The position numbers and the translations under genes were made by a program. From positions 59 through 64,058 of the forward strand of contig JAIDJW010000033.1 in NCBI GenBank assembly GCA_029052015.1: a DNA stretch of 64,000 nt, written 5' to 3'. The stretch comes from Paramuribaculum sp. (GTDB taxonomy: Bacteria; Bacteroidota; Bacteroidia; Bacteroidales; Muribaculaceae). The notes beneath the pieces were generated by a model. The model was not told where the DNA came from. It saw only the letters and a list, made by a program, of their open reading frames with translations, and did not search any database. Shown here piece after piece: positions 5,524 to 16,889 of this stretch (position 1 is its first letter; each line of letters starts with the position of its first letter).

Positions 5524-6024
5524 TTAAGGTTTAAGGATTCCGTCTTTTACAAGCTGATCGCGCAGCGCACGGCGGTCAACATCAAGCACCACTCCGTATC
5601 CGTCGATTGATTTAGTGGAGCCCTTCATTCGCGCTTCGCCGCTCTTGCTGTTTTCTTTCACATACTTGCGGTATTTGCCGCCATCCCTGAAGAAAGGGGC
5701 AAAATAATAATCGTAGCGCTCGCGTCCGTTTACCTCCATTACCAAAGGATGACGCTCGGCACCCTGAACCCCCTGCGAGAATCCGTTGAACAGCACGGTG
5801 GCGAGAGCATTTTTCTTTGCCTGCTCCACTGCCTCGCTCTGACTGGTGCCCCTACCCCATGCACGCACGGTGAGTGTGCCGTCACCGTTCTGACCGAGAC
5901 ACACGGTTTCCATATTGGTATAAGCGGCAGCGGGCACCACAGTGGGCTTTTTGCTGCAACCGCCTGTAGTTGTCGCTGCAACCGCGATAAGCGCGCAAAC
6001 GATTAGTCTGACAGTTTTTTTCAT
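5524..6024 (-). CDS. Hypothetical lipoprotein (LPP20/FlgT-N-like), paralog of 6761..7264
   Basis: Signal peptide ending ...TTGGC (lipobox-like). Contains AWGRGTSQSEAVEQAKKNALATVLFNG and shares LF(N/K)G, FxPFF and LRxxLxKxG motifs with the 167-aa protein. Confidence 0.7.
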   Translation of the reverse strand: MKKTVRLIVCALIAVAATTTGGCSKKPTVVPAAAYTNMETVCLGQNGDGTLTVRAWGRGTSQSEAVEQAKKNALATVLFNGFSQGVQGAERHPLVMEVNGRERYDYYFAPFFRDGGKYRKYVKENSKSGEARMKGSTKSIDGYGVVLDVDRRALRDQLVKDGILKP

Positions 6025-6032
6025 AATATGAG

Positions 6033-6761
6033 TTAGAATTCGTAGCCTAATTTGAGACCTAGAAATGATAGCACCTGACGCTTGCGCTCACCCTCTTTAT
6101 TAATTAGCGGAAGCTGCTGCGCAGTGTAATTGAGGGATACAAGGAACGACGACCGGTCGACACCGAACTTGAAGCCTATGGCAGGTCGCGCCATAAGACC
6201 GTCACGGAACGCACCGCCGAGATCAACAGAATAGTATGGAACTATGCTGCGATATGCGTGTCCGAGAAGATTGCCGCGCACATTGAAGTAAAGCGGTATA
6301 GCCCATTTTACAGAGGAGTCGCGGAAATCGGGAACCTGACTGAAGTAGTGTCGATAGCCTACTCCAAGACCGATGCGGGCATACTGGCTGCCGCGATAAC
6401 CGAACACAAAGTCTCCTTCGGCATACATTCTGTTAGTGTGGCTCACCCTTACAGAACTACCTGCCCCTATCTCAAACGCACACCAGAATCCGTGCTCCAT
6501 AGAGCGCAGCCGGGTGAGGTTGCCATCATGCCCGACTGATGGCACTTCCGGTGCCTGACGCGTGATTTTACGCACCTCAGTCATATTATAAGTATATAAC
6601 TGACCGTTTTCGCTTCGGATCGTTATACTGACATTGGGCACTTCGCTCTCGATATATCCTTTGATGACGCTACCGTTGTTGAGGTATATGTAATCGGCGC
6701 TCCTGGCGCCGGCACCGAGCGCGCACACTACCAGTGCGAGCAGCATAATCAGTTTCTTCAT
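6033..6761 (-). CDS. Small outer-membrane beta-barrel with N-terminal soluble domain
   Basis: Signal peptide, N-domain DYIYLNNGSVIKGYI, amphipathic beta strands and a C-terminal BAM-type signal LGLKLGYEF. Confidence 0.8.
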   Translation of the reverse strand: MKKLIMLLALVVCALGAGARSADYIYLNNGSVIKGYIESEVPNVSITIRSENGQLYTYNMTEVRKITRQAPEVPSVGHDGNLTRLRSMEHGFWCAFEIGAGSSVRVSHTNRMYAEGDFVFGYRGSQYARIGLGVGYRHYFSQVPDFRDSSVKWAIPLYFNVRGNLLGHAYRSIVPYYSVDLGGAFRDGLMARPAIGFKFGVDRSSFLVSLNYTAQQLPLINKEGERKRQVLSFLGLKLGYEF

Positions 6762-8491: not shown

Positions 8492-9835
8492 TCAGTCTAT
8501 TTCTTCATCGGCTTCGTAACCGCCCATCTCGCGGATAGCGTTTTTGAGCATGGTGTACTGCTTGAAGAGATGATTCACCGGCACCTCTCCATTTATATAA
8601 TCATGCATGGGGCTCTTCAGGAAGAAACTGAGGAAGCGCTGTATGCCATGACGGCCTGCACGGGCGGCAAGATCGCTCAGAAGCACGAGGTCAAGACACA
8701 GTGGCGCGGCAAGGATAGAATCGCGGCAGAGGAAATTAATCTTAATCTGCATGGGATAGCCCATCCAGCCGAAAATGTCGATATTGTCCCAGCCTTCCTT
8801 GCTGTCATTGCGCGGAGGATAGTAGTTGATGCGCACTTTGTGATAATAGCCCTGATGACCGCCTTCTTCAGCGCCACCGCAGTTGGCATTGTAAAGGTCG
8901 GGCTGCTCTTCTGGCACGAGGATTGATTCGAGAGTCGACAACTTCGAAACCTCCTTGGTGCGGAAGTTGGCTGGCTCGTCGAGCACAAGACCGTCACGGT
9001 TGCCGAGAATATTGGTTGAGAACCAGCCGCTGAGACCGAGACACCGTGTGCCTATTATGGGTGCAAAACCTGATTTCACAAGAGTCTGACCGGTCTTGAA
9101 GTCCTTGCCGGCGATGGGCATGCGGGTCTTTTCGCTGAGTTCCCACATTGCGGGGATGTCGACTGTAGTGTTTGGAGCGCCCATGATGAAGGGTGCGCCC
9201 TCGCTTAGTGCGGCGTAAGCATAGCACATGGAGGGAGCTATATGCTCTTTGTCGTCTGCCTGCATTGCTGCCTCGAGGGATTCGAGCGAACCATGCACTT
9301 CCTCATCAACAGGAACATATACTTCAGTAGAAGCAGCCCAGAGAACCACAACGCGCTCCACTCCGGTCTCTTTTTTAAAGCTGCGGATATCCTCGCGGAG
9401 TTGTTCTACCATTTCCCAACGGGTTTTGCCGGTCATTATATTGTCGCCATTCAGCCGCTTTGCATAATTGTGGTCGAATGCCGCCTTCATGGGCACAATC
9501 TTTTCAAGCTCGTCCTTAACCGGCTCGATATCCTTGTCATTAAGCACTTCCGCATATTTCGCGCTCTCGTACGCATTTGCGGGGTAAACATCCCATGCGC
9601 CGAACACTATATCATCAAGCTTAGCCAAGGGCACAATATCCTCATATTTCAGATATTTTTTTTCTGAGCCTCTGCCCACACGAATCTTATCATACTGGGT
9701 CATTGCGCCTACCGGCTTGGCAAGACCTTTGCGGGCCATGAGGACACCTGTCATAAATGTTGAACTGACAGCGCCGAGACCGACCACAAGAACGCCTAGT
9801 TTACCGTCTGCTGGCTTTACCGTTGCCTTGTTCAT
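8492..9835 (-). CDS. ino1: myo-inositol-1-phosphate synthase (MIPS)
   Basis: VGLGAVSST Rossmann motif, VVLWAASTE, GKDFKTGQT, NILGNRDG, CRDSILAAPL, SFFLKSP. Confidence 0.96.
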   Translation of the reverse strand: MNKATVKPADGKLGVLVVGLGAVSSTFMTGVLMARKGLAKPVGAMTQYDKIRVGRGSEKKYLKYEDIVPLAKLDDIVFGAWDVYPANAYESAKYAEVLNDKDIEPVKDELEKIVPMKAAFDHNYAKRLNGDNIMTGKTRWEMVEQLREDIRSFKKETGVERVVVLWAASTEVYVPVDEEVHGSLESLEAAMQADDKEHIAPSMCYAYAALSEGAPFIMGAPNTTVDIPAMWELSEKTRMPIAGKDFKTGQTLVKSGFAPIIGTRCLGLSGWFSTNILGNRDGLVLDEPANFRTKEVSKLSTLESILVPEEQPDLYNANCGGAEEGGHQGYYHKVRINYYPPRNDSKEGWDNIDIFGWMGYPMQIKINFLCRDSILAAPLCLDLVLLSDLAARAGRHGIQRFLSFFLKSPMHDYINGEVPVNHLFKQYTMLKNAIREMGGYEADEEID

Positions 9836-10044
9836 GGTTTGGAAATATGTTGGTTATTATTACTTCTATCATTCTGTTTTCCTACTCGTTTTTATGCACC
9901 GATGCGGAAAAAGCGTGTAAAAGTACATCTAATTTTTTGTATGCAAAATTATTTGTAATATAAACTCCACTTATTTTTGTGAATGATGTTTAATTTATCA
10001 TTGCAAATGACAACAATCAATAAATTACCTCGGAAATCACAATG

Positions 10045-10773
10045 TCAACTGTGAATATTCAATAACGGCAGGTTGCAGACCTCCGAGAGCTTGTGGATAC
10101 TCATGGCAGACACTTCCGCACTCGATTCGTCATCATCCCATCCATTACCCACAAGCCGGACAGTGTTGCACCCGAGACTCGCAGCAGGTATAATATCTTT
10201 TTTCATACTGTCGCCAACAACAAGCACCTCATGCGGGCAAAGTCCGAGATCTTCGACTCCGAGGGCAAAAATTGCGGGGTCGGGCTTGCGCACACCGACG
10301 ACCGCACTTTCTATCACAGCCTTGAAATAACTGCAAAGACCGTAGTCGGCGAGCACAGAATTTACATTGCCATAGAAATTGGAAACAAGTACCATCGGGA
10401 CACCTGCTTTGCGGAGCGTTTCAAGAGTCTGCCGCGACTCGACGGTGCATTCCCTCGCATAATCATCACAATAGGCGGCAATTTCGCCAGAATGAGATGC
10501 CGCAGTGCCCGGAGCAACCACTCCATTATCTTCAAGAAATTCGAGCTCTATGCGTATTTTTATCTCCATTAGAGCACGGAAAGTGTGGTGGGGCTCAATA
10601 TAGCGCTTCTTTGCCAAGGCTCGCTCGGCATGGACGTAGGCCTCTTTGAAGTCTTTCTCGCCGACATCCACTCCTGCTGCGCGGTAGCCCCGGCGGATAA
10701 TATGGCTCCAGTGTTCACCACGGCTGTCAAGAGTGCCGCCGTAGTCAAATATCACACCTTTTATCGCCGCCAT
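10045..10773 (-). CDS. HAD family hydrolase (candidate inositol-phosphate or phospholipid phosphatase)
   Basis: IFDYGGTLDS, LVSNF, RKPDPAIF and VVGDSMKKDI HAD motifs, within the inositol cluster. Confidence 0.88.
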   Translation of the reverse strand: MAAIKGVIFDYGGTLDSRGEHWSHIIRRGYRAAGVDVGEKDFKEAYVHAERALAKKRYIEPHHTFRALMEIKIRIELEFLEDNGVVAPGTAASHSGEIAAYCDDYARECTVESRQTLETLRKAGVPMVLVSNFYGNVNSVLADYGLCSYFKAVIESAVVGVRKPDPAIFALGVEDLGLCPHEVLVVGDSMKKDIIPAASLGCNTVRLVGNGWDDDESSAEVSAMSIHKLSEVCNLPLLNIHS

Positions 10774-11707
10774 AATCGTTGTGTTGTAGCATCGCTGTCA
10801 TGCGACGGCATATCCGTTCGTGACGGACCACCATCATGACAAGTATGAAATTGAGCACCGTCAGCTCAAAGGCGAAATAAAGCCAGGGCATCTTCACGAG
10901 CAATGCCGTGAAAAGCGCTATTGTGCGCCAATTGAACGACAGGATATTGGTATATTTCATCAGCGGCAGACTACTCTTCCGGAAATCATCACGGAATTTT
11001 TTCGGAATGTCGCCATTGGGAAAACGGCATGACAGCTCCGCTCTCAGACGCTGCATCGACTTGGCTGTAGCCTCCTGCTGAACGGTGTAGTTGGTGTATA
11101 CTGTCAGAAACAGCTTCTGCCAGAACTCTTTCTTCCAGCTCATTGACGCAAGGCGCCGCTTCAGGCTGAATGCGCGCTCAAGCTCACTGCCATCCTTACC
11201 TTTGAGAAAATAAAGATGAAACTGCCGGTAGTAATCTGCCATAGCAGCCTGCTTTGCATGACACAGTCCGGTAACTGCCGCGATAAACCATATCAGCCAC
11301 GGATGAGCCATAAAGAAGTCGGAAGTGACATTTTCGCGCAGACATATAGCTGCGTATATGCTCACAAACCACAGGTCGCCGCTGAGTCCATCAAGAATCC
11401 TGCCTAAGCGCGAATAGCTGTGGGTCATTCGGGCGAGCTGTCCGTCAGCGCTGTCAAAAGAGTTAGCCCACACAAGCAGCAGCATGCCGAGGATATTTAC
11501 CCAGTATGTATTGAAGTACATCAGTATACCGGCTCCGACACCCAGAAATATTGAGGCGATAGTGATAGCGTTGGGAGTGACACCTAACTTCATTGCCAGG
11601 CGCGCCCACATATATCCAATAGGGCGATAGAACGCAAGGTCTATCCCCTCCTCGGTGTCAAGCGATTTCAGGCTGTTTTTGTAGGACTTGTCAGCAGTCT
11701 CAGTCAT
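10745..11707 (-). CDS. CDP-alcohol phosphatidyltransferase family protein 1
   Basis: TPNAIT and DSADGQLAR...GRILDGLSGD motifs with multiple TM helices. Confidence 0.92.
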   Translation of the reverse strand: MTETADKSYKNSLKSLDTEEGIDLAFYRPIGYMWARLAMKLGVTPNAITIASIFLGVGAGILMYFNTYWVNILGMLLLVWANSFDSADGQLARMTHSYSRLGRILDGLSGDLWFVSIYAAICLRENVTSDFFMAHPWLIWFIAAVTGLCHAKQAAMADYYRQFHLYFLKGKDGSELERAFSLKRRLASMSWKKEFWQKLFLTVYTNYTVQQEATAKSMQRLRAELSCRFPNGDIPKKFRDDFRKSSLPLMKYTNILSFNWRTIALFTALLVKMPWLYFAFELTVLNFILVMMVVRHERICRRMTAMLQHNDYGGDKRCDI

Positions 11708-12558
11708 TTCAGCAAACGAAGTGCGTATGTTTTGTCACGCAAAAACTGTCCAAGTGTGGCAGGACTCTCACGATACGGGAGCTGCTGCTCAGGAGTGATG
11801 ATGTCGCCTATGCTGACATGAATCTCCTTGCCTACTTTGCGAAACACTTCTGCAGGAAGCCTCAATGATCTTGCCGGCCAGCATACATGACCGAGAAAAT
11901 TGCACCACCAACTGTTGCCTCCGTGAAAGAATATGGGTATCACAGGCACTTTCGCACGATATATTATCTGGAGCACAGAGTCCTGCCACTCTTTGTCTAT
12001 AGGCTGACCTTTCCAGTTGGTATTGCTCATAGCGCCTGCCGGAAAAAAGCCGAGCGGCTCACCATTTGCCAGCTGACGTATGGACTGACGTATACCTATA
12101 ACCGACACTGCCTTCTTGGCAGGATCTTTCTGCGCCCACGCGTCAACCGCAATGAAATTAGGTCTCATGGCCGATATCTTGTTAAGTATCATATTGACCA
12201 TGACCTTGAAATTTGGACGCCGCGAGCCGATAAGATGGATGAGAGAAATGCCGTCAAGAGCGCCGTAGGGATGATTGCTAACTGTTATGAATGATCCTTC
12301 CGGCAAATGGTCTAACACTTGCTCGTTGTCCACGCGGAGTTTAATTTTGAACTCTTCAAATAGCAATCTGCGTGTAAACTCCGGTCCGGGAGTATCACAG
12401 CACTTGCTGTGAACTGCATTCACTTTGTCTACCTGAAGAATATGGAGAAGCCAGTTGACAAGCTTCTCGTGACCGTCAAGTTTCGGAATCAGTTGTCGGA
12501 TATCCTCATAGTTCAGCACATCCGGTCTTATTTCATAATCTGGTGATATCAGGTCCAT
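11704..12558 (-). CDS. Lysophospholipid/glycerolipid acyltransferase (PlsC-like)
   Basis: NHPYGALDG, FFPAGAMS and VPVIPIFFHG acyltransferase blocks. Confidence 0.88.
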   Translation of the reverse strand: MDLISPDYEIRPDVLNYEDIRQLIPKLDGHEKLVNWLLHILQVDKVNAVHSKCCDTPGPEFTRRLLFEEFKIKLRVDNEQVLDHLPEGSFITVSNHPYGALDGISLIHLIGSRRPNFKVMVNMILNKISAMRPNFIAVDAWAQKDPAKKAVSVIGIRQSIRQLANGEPLGFFPAGAMSNTNWKGQPIDKEWQDSVLQIIYRAKVPVIPIFFHGGNSWWCNFLGHVCWPARSLRLPAEVFRKVGKEIHVSIGDIITPEQQLPYRESPATLGQFLRDKTYALRLLK

Positions 12559-12642
12559 AGTAGTGTTTTTTCCGCCGATTGAATCGAATCATTTATATAC
12601 AAGTAATTTTCCCAACAACACACCCGACTCTCCCCGAGCGAA

Positions 12643-13227
12643 TTATTGCTCATCTGCCTCCTTACACCCGTTTTCAGATGTTTTATCTTTACGTCGGGAG
12701 GTAAGAATACGGTCGATATAGAGATCCAGGCGAGTCACTTTGAACACAAAGTGGCGCTGGAGAAGAAAATTCCAAAATAAGGAGACCATAAGGGCAACAA
12801 AGAGTCGCGATGCCAAAAAGGTGCCGTTGTTGGATATCATAAACACATTCTCCTGAAGCCATAGATTATCCTTTACAAGATAATACACCACCTGGGTGCC
12901 GTAACTGTTAAGCAGCAGCGAGCCTGCCCATACCAATGAAAATTTGAACAGAGCTATACGCCAGTTCACACTATAGGCATGGAATGTGAATCTGTAGTTT
13001 ATCGCACAGTTTAGCACTCCTCCGATAAATGCTCCTATTGCCGTAGATAGAAAAGGAGTGAGATGGAGCAGAGAAAATGCAAAAAAAGCCGTGAGTGTAT
13101 CAATCCAACCGCACACCTGGGACGATACGCTTGACCTCAGCAAGGTGTAAAACAATCCGTCGCTGTGAAGTATTTGCTTCTTAGCCTTCCTGAGTTTTGA
13201 CTTTGCTTCTTGTCGCGCAGAATTCAT
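12643..13227 (-). CDS. GtrA family membrane protein (candidate lipid flippase)
   Basis: Four TM segments with NCAINYRFTF and WNFLLQRHFVF GtrA motifs. Confidence 0.88.
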   Translation of the reverse strand: MNSARQEAKSKLRKAKKQILHSDGLFYTLLRSSVSSQVCGWIDTLTAFFAFSLLHLTPFLSTAIGAFIGGVLNCAINYRFTFHAYSVNWRIALFKFSLVWAGSLLLNSYGTQVVYYLVKDNLWLQENVFMISNNGTFLASRLFVALMVSLFWNFLLQRHFVFKVTRLDLYIDRILTSRRKDKTSENGCKEADEQ

Positions 13228-13919
13228 TTATCTTTCTTCGAGGGTTTCAGCGGATCAATCTTGGCAAGAGCGCGGAGGTCTTTTACCATCGACACTATAT
13301 ATGTCAGAAACAGACCTGCCGCTATTACAGCCCCAACGCAATCATACACCGAGAACTCCTGATTACCTATTCTGAGGCTGATATCGTTGAGCGGAAGATA
13401 CATATAGAGAATAAATACCAGAATGATGATGATGCGCATCTCGGTTGGTCCGAGACTTGCGTATGTGAGCTGGAATTTGCCAAGCACTATAGTGGAAAGA
13501 TAGGTATATATTGAAAGGCACAGATAGCCGCCCATTATAAACAGCGATATGCTGAGATCCATAAGGGGTGCCAACCCGAGCCCTACGCAGATGAGACATG
13601 TTGTGAGTGCATCCAGAGAGTGGTCTATGAAAAAACCGTACTTGGGTCGCTGGGCATCACGCACGCGTGCCACCGTACCGTCAAGGCTATCACCCACCCA
13701 ATTGATTACCAGACCTACACACGCAAGCCACAAATAGCTGACATTGCACTGCGCCATCCAACAGAATGCAGCATATATCACAGCTCCCGCTACGCCTAAA
13801 TATGTGAGCATATCAGAGGTTACCCAGAGCGGCAACCTTTTGCCTGCCCAAATCAGCGCTTTTTTTTCAGCAGCGTTAAGCAAGGACGTCTGAATACGTT
13901 CTGCATTTTCATTTCCCAT
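13224..13919 (-). CDS. CDP-alcohol phosphatidyltransferase family protein 2
   Basis: Canonical DSLDGTVAR...GFFIDHSLD motif and GPTEMR. Confidence 0.92.
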   Translation of the reverse strand: MGNENAERIQTSLLNAAEKKALIWAGKRLPLWVTSDMLTYLGVAGAVIYAAFCWMAQCNVSYLWLACVGLVINWVGDSLDGTVARVRDAQRPKYGFFIDHSLDALTTCLICVGLGLAPLMDLSISLFIMGGYLCLSIYTYLSTIVLGKFQLTYASLGPTEMRIIIILVFILYMYLPLNDISLRIGNQEFSVYDCVGAVIAAGLFLTYIVSMVKDLRALAKIDPLKPSKKDK

Positions 13920-14007
13920 GATTCTTCAGATGTTTTTGTTAATAGTAGTATTAATTGGAACAAGTCCCGACACAGAGAAACCCAAGTCGCTAATACTATA
14001 ATTCTTG

Positions 14008-14015
14008 CAAAGTTA
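14008..14015 (-). promoter_or_regulatory. -7 element (TAACTTTG) for the CDP-AP2/GtrA unit
   Basis: TAnnTTTG match, with a TTTG (-33) at 14034-14037. Confidence 0.55.
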
Positions 14016-14172
14016 CATAAAAATTCCGGGAGACAAAGCCACTTGCCATTGAAAAACATCCCTGACATCTGTTCCACAAACCGCGAAAACACTGGTACTC
14101 ACACAAAAAGCGCTCTCAGGCACTCCGAACAATCGAATGCGTCAGAGTTTCGGTAATATGTCGTAGGCAGAG

Positions 14173-15054
14173 CTATCTGGCAGCAGCAGCTCCGTTACAC
14201 CTCTTTATTTCTGCCATGATAGCCTTGGCTATCTGCGGAGCAGCTTCAGCACGACATGGTGCAAAACTCGGCCAGTCGTTGAAATCTATTATTCTGATTT
14301 CTCCTTCAGGCGACACGATACAGTCACCTCCATAAATCCTCACATCCAAAGCATCAGCAGCTTCCTGACATATTTTTTTGAGATATGCCACATTAAACTT
14401 TATGCCGCTGACTTCACCGTTGACACTCTCCATGCCATACTTGCTGTGGTCAACCATAAATGGATAAAACCAGTAGAAAAAAGGAGTGCCTGAAATACCG
14501 TAGAATTTTATAAGGTCACCTACGAGATGGCGGTTTATCACAGCTCTCTTAATTCCTCTGAGAAAATATTCCTGGAGCACTTCCTGAGCCTCTTCGGCAT
14601 GACGTACATAGCTAACATCCTCCTTGTGCATGGTATGGGAGTCGCCTCTCTTGATCCAGCAGTGCTCATAGCGCGCCCTGACTAATATATCGCGCACGGC
14701 CTCATCTGTATTCACTATCAGACTGTCGGGATAAGGAATATTGCTGCCCAAAAGAATACGTGTCATTCTTTCACGGGTACAATTTTCTATTCCATATCCT
14801 GAGTTTATCACGAGACAGCCTTCGTCCTCCTTTTGCTGGAGCTTCCGGATGGAACGATATTCACGACACATATTCACAATGATTCGCTCGCTTACAGCAC
14901 CCTCGGCAAACTGATCTTCGCTATAGACATTTACCTCGCACCCGCGCTTGCGCAATTGCTCGGCCACAATATTGAGGATTGCAGTGTCGTTGCCGATATG
15001 ATTGGGCGAAAAAGCTCCGGCTCTTTTTATCGCGGCTATTTTTATCTCAGCCAT
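14173..15054 (-). CDS. ATP-grasp fold protein with ITPK1-like (inositol phosphate kinase-like) motifs; function unproven
   Basis: WIKRGD, HLVGDLIKFYG and YGGDCIV-x7-IIDFNDWPSF. The ATP-grasp call is solid; the kinase call is inference. Confidence 0.75.
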   Translation of the reverse strand: MAEIKIAAIKRAGAFSPNHIGNDTAILNIVAEQLRKRGCEVNVYSEDQFAEGAVSERIIVNMCREYRSIRKLQQKEDEGCLVINSGYGIENCTRERMTRILLGSNIPYPDSLIVNTDEAVRDILVRARYEHCWIKRGDSHTMHKEDVSYVRHAEEAQEVLQEYFLRGIKRAVINRHLVGDLIKFYGISGTPFFYWFYPFMVDHSKYGMESVNGEVSGIKFNVAYLKKICQEAADALDVRIYGGDCIVSPEGEIRIIDFNDWPSFAPCRAEAAPQIAKAIMAEIKRCNGAAAAR

Positions 15055-15066
15055 TTTATATTCCGG

Positions 15067-15780
15067 TTATGATTGGTTGTTTTTGGCAAGCATTGATTCC
15101 GCGGTTGTTATATCTGCCGCATGATCGATGTCTATAATTTTGCCCATTGGCCATGCTTTGAGTTTCAGCCCGGCCTCAACGAGCGCTCTCTGATAGTTTC
15201 TCATTCTTGAGGTGCCGTTTGCAAGACAGCGGTCAAGAACTTCAAGCGCTTTGGGACCGAGTGCATATATCCCGCCGCTGACAAATTTAGCACCCGGAGA
15301 CATATTGTCTTCAAAGGCGGTTATACGCATATCGGCATCCGTCACTACATACAGCGGTTTTTCATCATCGACATAATCGGTGACAGCCATATATCCGTCT
15401 GCGTCACCATCATTTTCAAAAGCATCGATATAGCGTTTGAATTCTTCGGGTGAAAAAACCGTATCTACCGTTGTCACGCAAAATCTGCCTTCAATCCCGG
15501 CGGTAACTTCTGCGAAACTGTGCATGGAATCCGGAGTGTTTCTGACAATCACTTTCACGGGCATTTTCGATTGTGCGGCAAGTTCGCTGGCATACTCCTC
15601 AAGTTGTGTGGTCCGTGCGTTTACAATAATGCCCACACTCTCAGCTCCGACGCTTTCAAATATGTCCAGCAGCCGTTCAAGCAGGGTTCTTCCCCCCAAC
15701 TTAACAAGAGGCTTCGGCGACTCAATACCTTCGGCGGCAAGGCGTGACCCCTCTCCAGCTGCTATGATTGCAAAGTTCAT
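15067..15780 (-). CDS. Nucleotidyltransferase (NTP_transferase family; candidate inositol-1-phosphate cytidylyltransferase)
   Basis: AIIAAGEGSRL...PKPLV motif and C-terminal IDIDHAAD, in the MIPS cluster. Confidence 0.85.
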   Translation of the reverse strand: MNFAIIAAGEGSRLAAEGIESPKPLVKLGGRTLLERLLDIFESVGAESVGIIVNARTTQLEEYASELAAQSKMPVKVIVRNTPDSMHSFAEVTAGIEGRFCVTTVDTVFSPEEFKRYIDAFENDGDADGYMAVTDYVDDEKPLYVVTDADMRITAFEDNMSPGAKFVSGGIYALGPKALEVLDRCLANGTSRMRNYQRALVEAGLKLKAWPMGKIIDIDHAADITTAESMLAKNNQS

Positions 15781-16889
15781 CAGCTTTCGTCGTTCTTGGT
15801 CAAATCGAGCACAACATTATCGCTCTTATTCTTTTCGATATACTGTTTGCGCAGAGGATTTGCATATGCTCTGTCATAGGAGACACGGCTGCGCCACACA
15901 TCTATGGCGGCAAAAATTGCCTGTCTCATTGAATCGGCATCGGCAATGCCTTTTCCGGCAATGTCGTATGCTGTGCCGTGATCTGGCGATGTGCGTACAA
16001 AAGGAAGACCGGCAGTGAAATTTACGCCGCTGTTCATAGCCATTGTCTTGAACGGGGCGAGTCCCTGGTCATGGTACATGGCAAGCACTCCGTCAAATTT
16101 TGCAAACTGACCGTTGCCGAAAAAACCGTCGGCGGCGTAAGGACCAAAACAATTTATTTTCTCTGCCTGTGCCTCTGCGATTGCCGGCTCTATAATCTCT
16201 TTCTCCTCGCTGCCGAGCAGCCCCTCCTCACCGGCGTGGGGATTGAGCGACAACACAGCTATGCGCGGACGATTCACTCCAAAATCGCGTCGAAGCGAAC
16301 GCTCAAATGCTTTTAATTTTCCGAGCACAGCCTCTTTGGTTATTGCCGCGGCTATTTTTGACACCGGCAAATGAGCGGTGACCAGCGCAACCCTCAGGGA
16401 GGTTGCCGGATTGCACATTATCATGAGTGCCTTGTCACCCGGTTCGCCAAGAGATGCCTCAAGATATTCCGTGTGGCCGGGAAACTGGAATGTATCACTT
16501 TGGATTGTGTGCTTGTCAATAGGAGCTGTGACGAGAACATCTATATCGCCGGCACGCAAGTCTGTCACCGCCCTTTCAAGTGCGGCAAAAGCCGCAGCTC
16601 CAGATTCGGACGAAGGAACACCGGGCTCAACCTTCACGTCCTCACCAACCACATTTATTATATTACACTGGTCTTCACGAGCCTCTGACGCCTGCGACAC
16701 CTGATTTATCTGCATCGGCGAAGTTATCGCACCTTTGCGATAATATGCGGCAATTTTAGCTGAGCCATAAATCACCGGTGTGCACAATTCAAGCATGCGC
16801 TCATCTTCAAGAGCCTTGAGCATGACCTCATAGCCGACACCGTTGATGTCTCCCTGGGTAATGCCAACTTTTATCTTTTTATTTTCCAT
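15780..16889 (-). CDS. pdxA: 4-hydroxythreonine-4-phosphate dehydrogenase
   Basis: GDINGVGYE, TAPIDK, FPGHTEYL, LNPHAGE, AMYHDQG, RTSPDHGTA. Confidence 0.96.
   Translation of the reverse strand: MENKKIKVGITQGDINGVGYEVMLKALEDERMLELCTPVIYGSAKIAAYYRKGAITSPMQINQVSQASEAREDQCNIINVVGEDVKVEPGVPSSESGAAAFAALERAVTDLRAGDIDVLVTAPIDKHTIQSDTFQFPGHTEYLEASLGEPGDKALMIMCNPATSLRVALVTAHLPVSKIAAAITKEAVLGKLKAFERSLRRDFGVNRPRIAVLSLNPHAGEEGLLGSEEKEIIEPAIAEAQAEKINCFGPYAADGFFGNGQFAKFDGVLAMYHDQGLAPFKTMAMNSGVNFTAGLPFVRTSPDHGTAYDIAGKGIADADSMRQAIFAAIDVWRSRVSYDRAYANPLRKQYIEKNKSDNVVLDLTKNDES

Follow-up and report, generated by a model that had tools for sequence, protein, structure and literature searches.

An ATP-grasp enzyme with a putative ITPK-like catalytic core is a constant member of the alternative inositol-lipid cluster of gut Bacteroidales

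Inositol sphingolipids and phospholipids of gut Bacteroidota affect the capsule, the ability to withstand host defences and gut fitness (PMC9246714). A putative alternative inositol lipid cluster, found in Bacteroides (Phocaeicola) vulgatus and Prevotella, was put forward by Heaver et al. 2022, who state it to be unconfirmed; their text and model name three genes, give the HAD protein a role in ceramide transfer, and contain no mention of an ATP-grasp gene (PMC9246714). Here we describe a cluster of this kind in a stretch of 64,000 nucleotides from Paramuribaculum sp. (Bacteroidales, Muribaculaceae; assembly GCA_029052015.1, contig JAIDJW010000033.1, positions 59 to 64,058 of the forward strand), which we call the window, and in particular the gene at 14173-15054, which encodes the ATP-grasp protein P0001. 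The cluster in the window shares with the alternative one a nucleotidyltransferase of the NTP transferase type, a CDP-alcohol phosphatidyltransferase and a HAD hydrolase beside MIPS, and it belongs to the same type. In contrast to the published model, the ATP-grasp gene is here a constant core member, and the HAD protein looks like a small-molecule phosphatase; the published role in ceramide transfer is unlikely for it. The core genes in the window are:

14173..15054, minus strand: ATP-grasp enzyme P0001, ATG start, 293 amino acids, from a family without a Pfam model
15067..15780, minus strand: NTP transferase (MobA-like/NTP_transferase by Pfam), 237 amino acids, putative cyclitol-phosphate cytidylyltransferase
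10745..11707, minus strand: core CDP-alcohol phosphatidyltransferase, 320 amino acids, best solved relative AF2299
10045..10773, minus strand: HAD subfamily IA hydrolase, passing the TIGR01549 and TIGR01509 cut-offs
8492..9835, minus strand: MIPS, by Pfam

Other described systems resemble this locus in part. The Rhodothermus/Thermotoga-type CDP-inositol route (MIPS, IPCT, BEPIS or DIPPS; PDB 4O6M AF2299) also has a cytidylyltransferase and a CDP-alcohol transferase beside MIPS, but its clusters contain neither the ATP-grasp gene nor the HAD, and its NTP transferase is distantly related to that of the window (E about 1e-5). The best solved relative of the window's NTP transferase is the heptose-1-phosphate guanylyltransferase HddC. 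In the nucleotide-heptose pathway, a kinase (HldE or HddA), a HAD phosphatase (GmhB) and a nucleotidyltransferase (HddC or HldE) move phosphate to the activated position, and kinase-transferase fusions are common. The likely parallel is one of scheme rather than a family assignment; the heptose pathway differs from that of the window in the kinase fold (PfkB or GHMP instead of ATP-grasp), the HAD subfamily and the substrate.

As for P0001 itself, ligases of the RimK/LysX/ArgX/MptN group (PF08443; PDB 4IWX, 3VPB, 5K2M) give the best global folds and have a similar size and domain order; unlike these, P0001 has no peptide or carrier-protein partner encoded nearby. The ITPK1 family of inositol-phosphate kinases (PF05770; PDB 2QB5, 1Z2N, 7PUP, 8OXE) has the same three-domain ATP-grasp architecture, with Z scores of 17.9-19.7 over 250-265 residues. 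ITPKs and P0001 also share the D...D-x-N ligands, an aromatic-P-(S/G)-aromatic end, a strand lysine where the ligases have arginine, an arginine where the central domain begins and the absence of a glycine-rich lid, and both act downstream of MIPS, P0001 by its context. P0001 differs from ITPK1 in being bacterial, in belonging to a lipid head-group operon, in having invariant residues of its own and, probably, in adding a single phosphate.

The preliminary description of this DNA, made from its sequence alone, had reported an ATP-grasp open reading frame with two characteristic motifs, 12 nt from a nucleotidyltransferase and within an ino1/MIPS cluster. All of this was found, on the minus strand: P0001 lies downstream of the NTP transferase gene with a gap of 12 nt, the motifs are HLVGDLIKFYGISG (residues 176-189) and DVRIYGGDCIVSPEGEIRIIDFNDWPSF (residues 237-264), and MIPS, the HAD and two CDP-alcohol phosphatidyltransferases follow on the same strand at 8492-13919. 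P0001 is a real gene rather than a chance frame, because it has thousands of homologues, 12 invariant columns and a confident fold model. At E<=1e-3, one collection yields 5569 homologues, almost every one annotated as "hypothetical protein" and most of them from Muribaculaceae and other Bacteroidales, and in a second library 1009 representative clusters at 50% identity match P0001. The invariant columns come from an alignment of 110 diverse sequences, and the AlphaFold2 model (mean pLDDT 96.7, pTM 0.92) has the three-domain ATP-grasp topology. Public names of relatives are "hypothetical", "ATP-grasp domain-containing" and "RimK-type ligase" or "glutathione synthase/RimK-type ligase".

We searched for the P0001 family and for MIPS in two genome samples, in which the counts are descriptive, as related genomes are not independent. 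Among 401 Bacteroidota genomes the family is present in 23, with MIPS in 22 of these and located about 3-8 kb away on the same contig in 20. Among 401 Bacteroidales genomes it is present in 53, with MIPS in 49 of them, and these 49 are drawn from 61 MIPS-positive genomes. Across the two samples, 92-96% of carriers are thus linked to MIPS. Two weak profile matches (in G565 and G680) belong to an unrelated RLAN-RimK protein and were removed from the counts. The association with MIPS on which the preliminary description had relied is borne out, and homologues are not concentrated in MIPS-less genomes.

The 23 diverse loci span Bacteroidales, Chitinophagales, Cytophagales and Ignavibacteria, and include Parabacteroides, Ferruginibacter, Runella and Melioribacter. 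The NTP transferase, the ATP-grasp enzyme, the 320-residue transferase and the HAD recur in them, mostly with MIPS, and all five genes are found in 20; the core CDP-alcohol transferase lies beside the ATP-grasp gene in all 23. The commonest layout across 80 Muribaculaceae-type loci is PdxA > NTP transferase > ATP-grasp > transferase > HAD > MIPS. Gene fusions point the same way. In several representative clusters and lineages, as well as in sampled genomes, there are NTP-transferase proteins whose C-terminal half is the ATP-grasp domain, and a structure search of the Atlas returned fusions of the ATP-grasp domain with the NTP transferase (clusters of 127 and 92 members), with the HAD (418 members) and with the CDP-alcohol transferase (60 members). 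PF05770 touches 51% of the members of the 92-member fused cluster. All three core partners other than MIPS thus occur in fusions with the ATP-grasp domain, and the P0001 family is a constant core member of the alternative inositol-lipid cluster of gut Bacteroidales.

The conserved residues of P0001 are R11, S16-P17, D23, R64, N84, R94, W133-x-K135, D146, H176 and G179, followed in the C-terminal part by K183-F-Y, G242-G-D244 and D257-x-N259-D260-W-P-S-F264. K135, K183, D244, D257 and N259 are invariant or nearly so (K183 is kept in 109 of 110 family members), while R11, S16-P17, D23, W133 and D260 are invariant residues of the family's own; R11, R64, R94, R136, K205 and R268 are its conserved basic residues. 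For comparison with the ligases, the family was aligned by hidden Markov model to RimK (7QYR) and, for the metal-site and D-x-R positions, also to PsnB (7DRM). The metal site is D257-x-N259, and likewise D-x-N in the human, Entamoeba and Arabidopsis ITPKs, against E-x-N in RimK and PsnB. The motif ends in P-S-F in the P0001 family, compared with P-G-L in RimK, P-S-Y in the Entamoeba enzyme, P-S-F in AtITPK4 and P-G-Y in the human enzyme. K183 occupies the strand position of the D-x-R arginine of RimK and PsnB. R94, at the start of the central domain, aligns with the S-R-E arginine of Entamoeba ITPK1, where RimK has the lysine of D-K, and after K135 the family has no glycine-rich lid (G-x-G-x-G), where RimK has EG-TQGIGV. 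The aligned strands read GDLVKFYGV and IIDFNDWPSF in the P0001 family, GADIRCFVV and VMEVNSSPGL in RimK, and GDDVRVYVI and VLELNASAMF in PsnB, and the corresponding ends in the ITPKs are VIDINAFPGY (human), VVDVNVFPSY (Entamoeba) and IVDLNYLPSF (AtITPK4). With the upstream aspartate included, the metal ligands GGD244...IID257-F-N259-D-W-P-S-F follow the ITPK1 pattern, namely FGID...VIDINAFPGY in human, CGID...VVDVNVFPSY in Entamoeba and FGFD...IVDLNYLPSF in AtITPK4. The residue signature of RimK/LysX-type ligases (E-x-N, the D-x-R arginine, the D-K lysine and the glycine-rich lid) is absent from the family.

In HsITPK1, the inositol phosphate is contacted by the conserved residues H167, K199 and R212, and by the distal residues K18, K59, H162 and G301 (Desfougeres et al., PMC6900528). 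S263 of P0001 matches the position of G301, and K183 and S263 appear to fit K199 and G301; for K18 and K59, plausible equivalents are R11 and R64. The preliminary description had contrasted the motifs of this protein with those of RimK-type ligases, and had assigned them to the ITPK1 type. The alignments uphold this for the D-x-N, the P-S-F ending and Lys183, which follow the ITPKs and not RimK or PsnB, as does Arg94, but the likeness does not evidently extend to the H167 and R212 contacts.

Searches against family models gave little. A Pfam scan of P0001 returned no family at E<=0.01, including PF05770 and PF17927, and a PF05770 search of the whole genome gave no match. NCBIfam returned sub-threshold matches to MptN, RimK and LysX, all within residues 54-124 of the N-terminal half, with scores far from the RimK-type cut-offs (25.8 bits for TIGR00768, cut-off 143; 29.3 for NF040720, cut-off 350). 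When 110 relatives were scanned at E<=1, 13 matched RimK, 13 ATPgrasp_ST and nine Ins134_P3_kin (PF05770); the best of these nine had an E of 3.6e-3, and none was significant or reached the gathering cut-off. By profile matching, then, no existing family model claims the P0001 family.

Fold comparison places P0001 among ATP-grasp enzymes. More than 25 ATP-grasp entries align to its model with Z scores of 17-22, over stretches of about 250-270 residues, and the protein has the features of the superfamily: a three-domain fold of the kind that holds ATP between its central and C-terminal parts, a conserved pair of Lys/Arg residues and a metal site of the acidic...acidic-x-Asn form. Within the superfamily, the top 50 Foldseek matches in PDB are all ligases (Ddl, ArgX, PsnB, RimK; TM 0.57-0.72), a ranking that does not discriminate kinase from ligase. 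Exhaustive VIA-align comparison of the whole model gave Z scores of 21.9 for RimK, 21.5 for ArgX, 21.4 for LysX and 20.7 for Ddl among ligases, and of 19.7 for human ITPK1, 19.5 for PPIP5K2, 19.1 for potato ITPK1, 18.6 for AtITPK4 and 17.9 for Entamoeba ITPK1 among kinases. With the catalytic half modelled separately (residues 125-270, pLDDT 93.8), Z scores were 9.7 for Ddl, 9.4 for VanA, 9.0 for human ITPK1 and 7.4 for RimK, so that ITPK1 and Ddl are tied in this model and RimK is lower. The modelled fold as such cannot decide between kinase and ligase, as ligases and ITPKs lie within 1-2 Z units of each other; in an Atlas feature search, RimK-type and Asgard ITPK clusters scored equally, at 0.97.

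The sequence profiles divide along the length of the protein. Against PDB sequences, the full-length profile matched PsnB (5.5e-7) and RimK (1e-4) before EhITPK1 (2.8e-4), AtITPK4 (3.9e-4) and human ITPK1 (3e-3). With the profile of the catalytic half (residues 125-270), AtITPK4 (7.8e-4) and human ITPK1 (2.7e-3) lead, PsnB falls to 0.18 and RimK is not found. The preliminary description had proposed as a check whether ITPK1 ranks above RimK, LysX and Ddl. The opposite ranking was obtained with Foldseek, with the whole-model Z scores and with the full-length profile, and P0001 has no PF05770 match; kinship with ITPK1 survives in the catalytic half, where the ITPKs lead weakly, and not in the full-length profile or the fold. 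We conclude that P0001 probably has an ITPK-like catalytic core on a RimK-like scaffold, which makes it a member of a distinct family and not a demonstrable member of ITPK1. It is the founding-type member of an uncharacterised ATP-grasp family fixed in the CDP-activated (Phocaeicola vulgatus/Prevotella-type) inositol-lipid pathway of Bacteroidota. Judging by gene order, the Phocaeicola vulgatus orthologue is probably encoded between BVU_RS13095 and BVU_RS13105. The published pathway model lacks this ATP-grasp enzyme of the head-group pathway, for which we propose a function below.

The distribution of the HAD bears on this function. Among 20 MIPS-positive, ATP-grasp-negative genomes, five have IPCT/BEPIS-like loci (MIPS and NTP transferase, with a CDP-OH transferase also in three), three have MIPS alone, five are of the B. 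thetaiotaomicron type and the rest are other or partial. No HAD of the cluster type was found within 10 kb in any of these 20 genomes, including the eight IPCT/BEPIS-like or MIPS-only loci. The HAD is present in 22 of the 23 ATP-grasp loci, and in the exception (G031) a separate contig carries it next to MIPS. Phosphatase and ATP-using enzyme are thus paired. On a direct route from inositol 3-phosphate (Ins3P) through CDP-inositol to lipid, there is no phosphate to remove unless one is added; a kinase would supply the missing logic.

Our preferred reading, which we rate at somewhat less than an even chance, is that P0001 acts as a kinase and that, working together with the HAD phosphatase, it shifts the phosphate of the MIPS-derived inositol phosphate before CDP activation. 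The fold, the conserved catalytic residues, the gene order, the fusions and the co-occurrence are observed; we infer the kinase reaction, its substrate, the ring positions concerned and which of kinase and phosphatase acts first. In this scheme, the ATP-grasp kinase would add a second phosphate to the MIPS product D-Ins3P, probably yielding an inositol bisphosphate, and the HAD-IA phosphatase would remove the original 3-phosphate. From the inositol monophosphate left by this reaction the NTP transferase would make CDP-inositol, the new phosphate being the one activated with CMP, and the 320-residue CDP-alcohol transferase would hand phospho-inositol on to ceramide or diacylglycerol. Kinase and phosphatase together would in this way move the phosphate to the ring position to be activated (a "phosphate walk"), and the outcome would be a D-1-linked head group, like the product of the PIP-synthase route. 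Capped HAD-IA enzymes act on small soluble phosphoesters; because the cluster HAD is of this type, a soluble bisphosphate is favoured over a lipid as its substrate. The P0001 family is fixed in the head-group operon and occurs in fusions with the NTP transferase, with the CDP-alcohol transferase and with the HAD, which points to a biosynthetic step in the making of plain inositol lipids. Cluster-bearing species are reported to make plain inositol-phosphoryl dihydroceramide, so there is no extra acyl or aminoacyl group to explain (PMC9246714). In the literature library that was searched, neither a description of this enzyme nor any characterised ATP-grasp enzyme in Bacteroides inositol or sphingolipid metabolism was found. 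More tentatively, we suggest that P0001 is a remote bacterial relative of the eukaryotic and Asgard ITPK1 kinases that phosphorylates inositol phosphate and so provides the ATP-dependent step hitherto missing from the inositol-lipid pathway that predominates in gut Bacteroidales, and that trimming of its bisphosphate by the HAD fixes the ring position or stereoisomer that is CDP-activated and joined to ceramide.

Several observations weigh against this phosphate-relocating kinase. The proposed kinase chemistry depends on four residue positions and on the genomic context. Taken as a whole, the protein is slightly more similar to ligases (the PsnB and RimK profiles, the NCBIfam matches to MptN, RimK and LysX, and the Z score of 21.9 for RimK against 19.7 for ITPK1), and the ITPK matches are marginal (E about 1e-3), resting mainly on one beta-hairpin. 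No conserved counterpart of the HsITPK1 contacts H167 and R212 is evident among P0001 family residues. The profile of the central region (residues 128-200, alignment A4) matched in PDB designed proteins and CBS domains and no ATP-grasp chain, so that K183 can be equated with K199 only tentatively. Next, the HAD almost always adjoins MIPS and travels with it in the split genome G031, which would also fit a HAD that acts first, as an inositol monophosphatase. Finally, in Ignavibacteria-type clusters the ATP-grasp gene is duplicated and lies beside a class-III aminotransferase, which would suit an amide-forming ligase, and the PfkB kinase described below occurs in some MIPS-positive genomes too, so that the argument for its replacing MIPS depends on adjacency in one genus.

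Among the alternatives, a ligase survives best, although we consider it unlikely. P0001 would then be a carboxylate-amine or carboxylate-hydroxyl ligase of the RimK/LysX/PsnB kind, attaching an amino acid or other acid to an inositol or amino-inositol head group, or to its precursor, by way of an acyl-phosphate. The best full-length profile matches (PsnB 5.5e-7, RimK 1e-4), the sub-threshold NCBIfam matches to MptN, RimK and LysX, the top folds (RimK and ArgX/LysX at Z 21.4-21.9, and ligases throughout the Foldseek top 50) and the public label "glutathione synthase/RimK-type ligase" all point to it, as do the Melioribacter-type clusters, where the duplicated gene stands beside a class-III aminotransferase and a GFO/IDH/MocA oxidoreductase that could make an amine nucleophile (amino-inositol). 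The residues that mark ligases are, however, replaced (E-x-N by D-x-N, the D-x-R arginine by lysine, the D-K lysine by arginine) and the glycine-rich loop is absent. Bacteroidales clusters keep the enzyme with no aminotransferase or carboxylate-supplying gene, the lipids reported for cluster-bearing species are unmodified PI-dihydroceramide, and a ligase would leave the conserved HAD phosphatase unexplained.

The operon of Melioribacter sp. (G381; L115, 4265-18596), with similar ones in L117, L119 and L121, adds to the cluster Omp85, PagL, MlaE/MlaF/MlaD, the class-III aminotransferase, the GFO/IDH/MocA oxidoreductase and an MprF-type LPG_synthase_TM protein. The ATP-grasp gene is duplicated in tandem in these clusters, and both copies retain all catalytic residues. 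The gene content of this Ignavibacteria form suggests a route to an amino-inositol lipid of the outer membrane.

Another possibility, which we regard as quite doubtful, is that the HAD first dephosphorylates the MIPS product, or that inositol is imported, and that the ATP-grasp enzyme then phosphorylates free inositol to the monophosphate isomer accepted by the NTP transferase. The HAD nearly always adjoins MIPS and stays with it in a split cluster, binding or deprotonation of ring hydroxyls could be the task of the invariant D260 and D23, and some cluster-bearing genomes lack MIPS and must use outside inositol. Tannerella forsythia makes its inositol ceramides from exogenous inositol only, and no inositol kinase was found there (PMC4587543). 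The MIPS-less carriers argue mostly the other way. There are five of them (Runella aurantiaca, Parabacteroides chinchillae and three metagenome-assembled genomes), and four keep the HAD, the transferase, the ATP-grasp enzyme and the NTP transferase together, although a HAD would not be needed on such a route. In MIPS-less Runella aurantiaca (L113, G371), a PfkB kinase gene (5814-6749, minus strand) lies beside the HAD, at the usual place of MIPS, and among solved proteins the kinase is closest to TM0415 (E 4e-26). TM0415 is a characterised myo-inositol kinase that depends on pyrophosphate, and its homologues differ in the inositol monophosphate that they make (PMC5931981). Orthologues of the Runella kinase (E<=1e-20) are present in four of the five MIPS-less carriers, three of 10 MIPS-positive carriers, one of five MIPS-positive non-carriers and none of five genomes with neither gene. 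With such a kinase in most of the MIPS-less carriers, a second inositol kinase would be redundant, or would form a futile cycle with the HAD. The pattern suggests that inositol entry is handled by another kinase, and that the ATP-grasp enzyme and the HAD are needed whatever the source of inositol phosphate, which lowers the case for a free-inositol kinase. Linkage to MIPS in 92-96% of carriers is also unlike a salvage enzyme.

Orthologues of the Runella PfkB kinase with 45-58% identity are encoded elsewhere in several Bacteroidales genomes. A clean replacement of MIPS by PfkB was considered and rejected: the adjacency is seen in Runella only, and the distribution is not complementary, with small numbers. 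The genes that flank the MIPS-less loci of Bacteroidales are unrelated ones, among them shikimate kinase, BadF-type ATPase and FeoB.

Lastly, the preliminary description had proposed a true multi-kinase of the ITPK1 type, building soluble higher inositol phosphates or phosphorylating inositol lipids, with possible host effects; for all its ITPK-like catalytic motifs and conserved basic residues (R11, R64, R94, R136, K205, R268), and although ITPK1 and its Asgard homologues phosphorylate Ins3P onward (PMC6900528; PMC8024741), this is very improbable, as the fusions, and an operon strictly shared with cytidylyltransferase, CDP-alcohol transferase and phosphatase genes, point to synthesis of lipid head groups, P0001 matches neither PF05770 nor PF17927, the H167 and R212 contacts are not evidently conserved, and no IPK1/IPMK-type partner or further inositol-phosphate kinase gene was found in the loci examined.

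The remaining genes of the cluster in the window, outside the core set, are:

15780-16889, minus strand: pdxA, upstream of the NTP transferase
13224..13919, minus strand: second CDP-alcohol phosphatidyltransferase, 231 amino acids, outside the core gene set of the 23 diverse loci
12643..13227, minus strand: GtrA-like membrane protein, part of a lineage-specific insert
11704..12558, minus strand: OlsF/GlsA-like lyso-lipid acyltransferase, part of the same insert

Downstream of P0001 the order is thus the 231-residue transferase, the GtrA-like protein, the OlsF/GlsA-like acyltransferase, the 320-residue transferase, the HAD and MIPS, all on the minus strand. The first three form an insert (11704-13919) between P0001 and the core transferase, preceded by a gap of 253 nt (13920-14172). 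A GtrA and/or acyltransferase gene is found at this position in about 17 of the 80 related loci, among which the 231-residue transferase was not scored separately; in most loci the ATP-grasp gene is directly followed by the transferase. With this insert, the lineage of the window may have gained a second head-group or acylation step. On the other side, the pdxA stop and the NTP transferase start share base 15780, and the pairing of the two genes is kept in most of the 80 related loci and in two other Bacteroidales families; it may be functional or mere synteny. The core transferase and the HAD overlap by 29 nt (10745-10773), and the acyltransferase and the core transferase by 4 nt (11704-11707), which suggests translational coupling within the operon. 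A scan of the operon for sigma-70 promoters and terminators was uninformative.

In many clusters outside Muribaculaceae, a protein resembling the MprF flippase part and consisting of LPG_synthase_TM only is encoded between the core transferase and the HAD, as in these loci:

L112, 7625-8617: LPG_synthase_TM-only protein
L113, 7637-8671: LPG_synthase_TM-only protein
L133, 11401-12357: LPG_synthase_TM-only protein
L136, 11349-12338: LPG_synthase_TM-only protein

It was not detected in the related Muribaculaceae loci or in the cluster of the window, and is possibly a flippase for the finished lipid. A different arrangement is seen in one genome (G712; L135, 6269-10514), where the ATP-grasp and NTP transferase genes are split by a DUF5686/CarboxypepD_reg protein, like the BT_1527 gene of the B. 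thetaiotaomicron cluster, and where the transferase, the HAD and MIPS are all out of view.

The ATP-grasp cluster, and not the characterised one of B. thetaiotaomicron, is the commonest route among the sampled Bacteroidales (49 of 61 MIPS-positive genomes). To our knowledge, the alternative inositol-lipid pathway has never been reconstituted. An ATP-dependent step paired with a phosphatase would give the order of its enzymes and predict an inositol bisphosphate intermediate, and the pair may explain both the stereochemistry of the head group and the use of host or dietary inositol by MIPS-less species. If true, this would be the first inositol-phosphate kinase of ITPK1-like type described in Bacteria, and the published three-gene model would have to be revised. 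Should the kinase reading hold, the ITPK-style active site would extend beyond eukaryotes and Asgard archaea.

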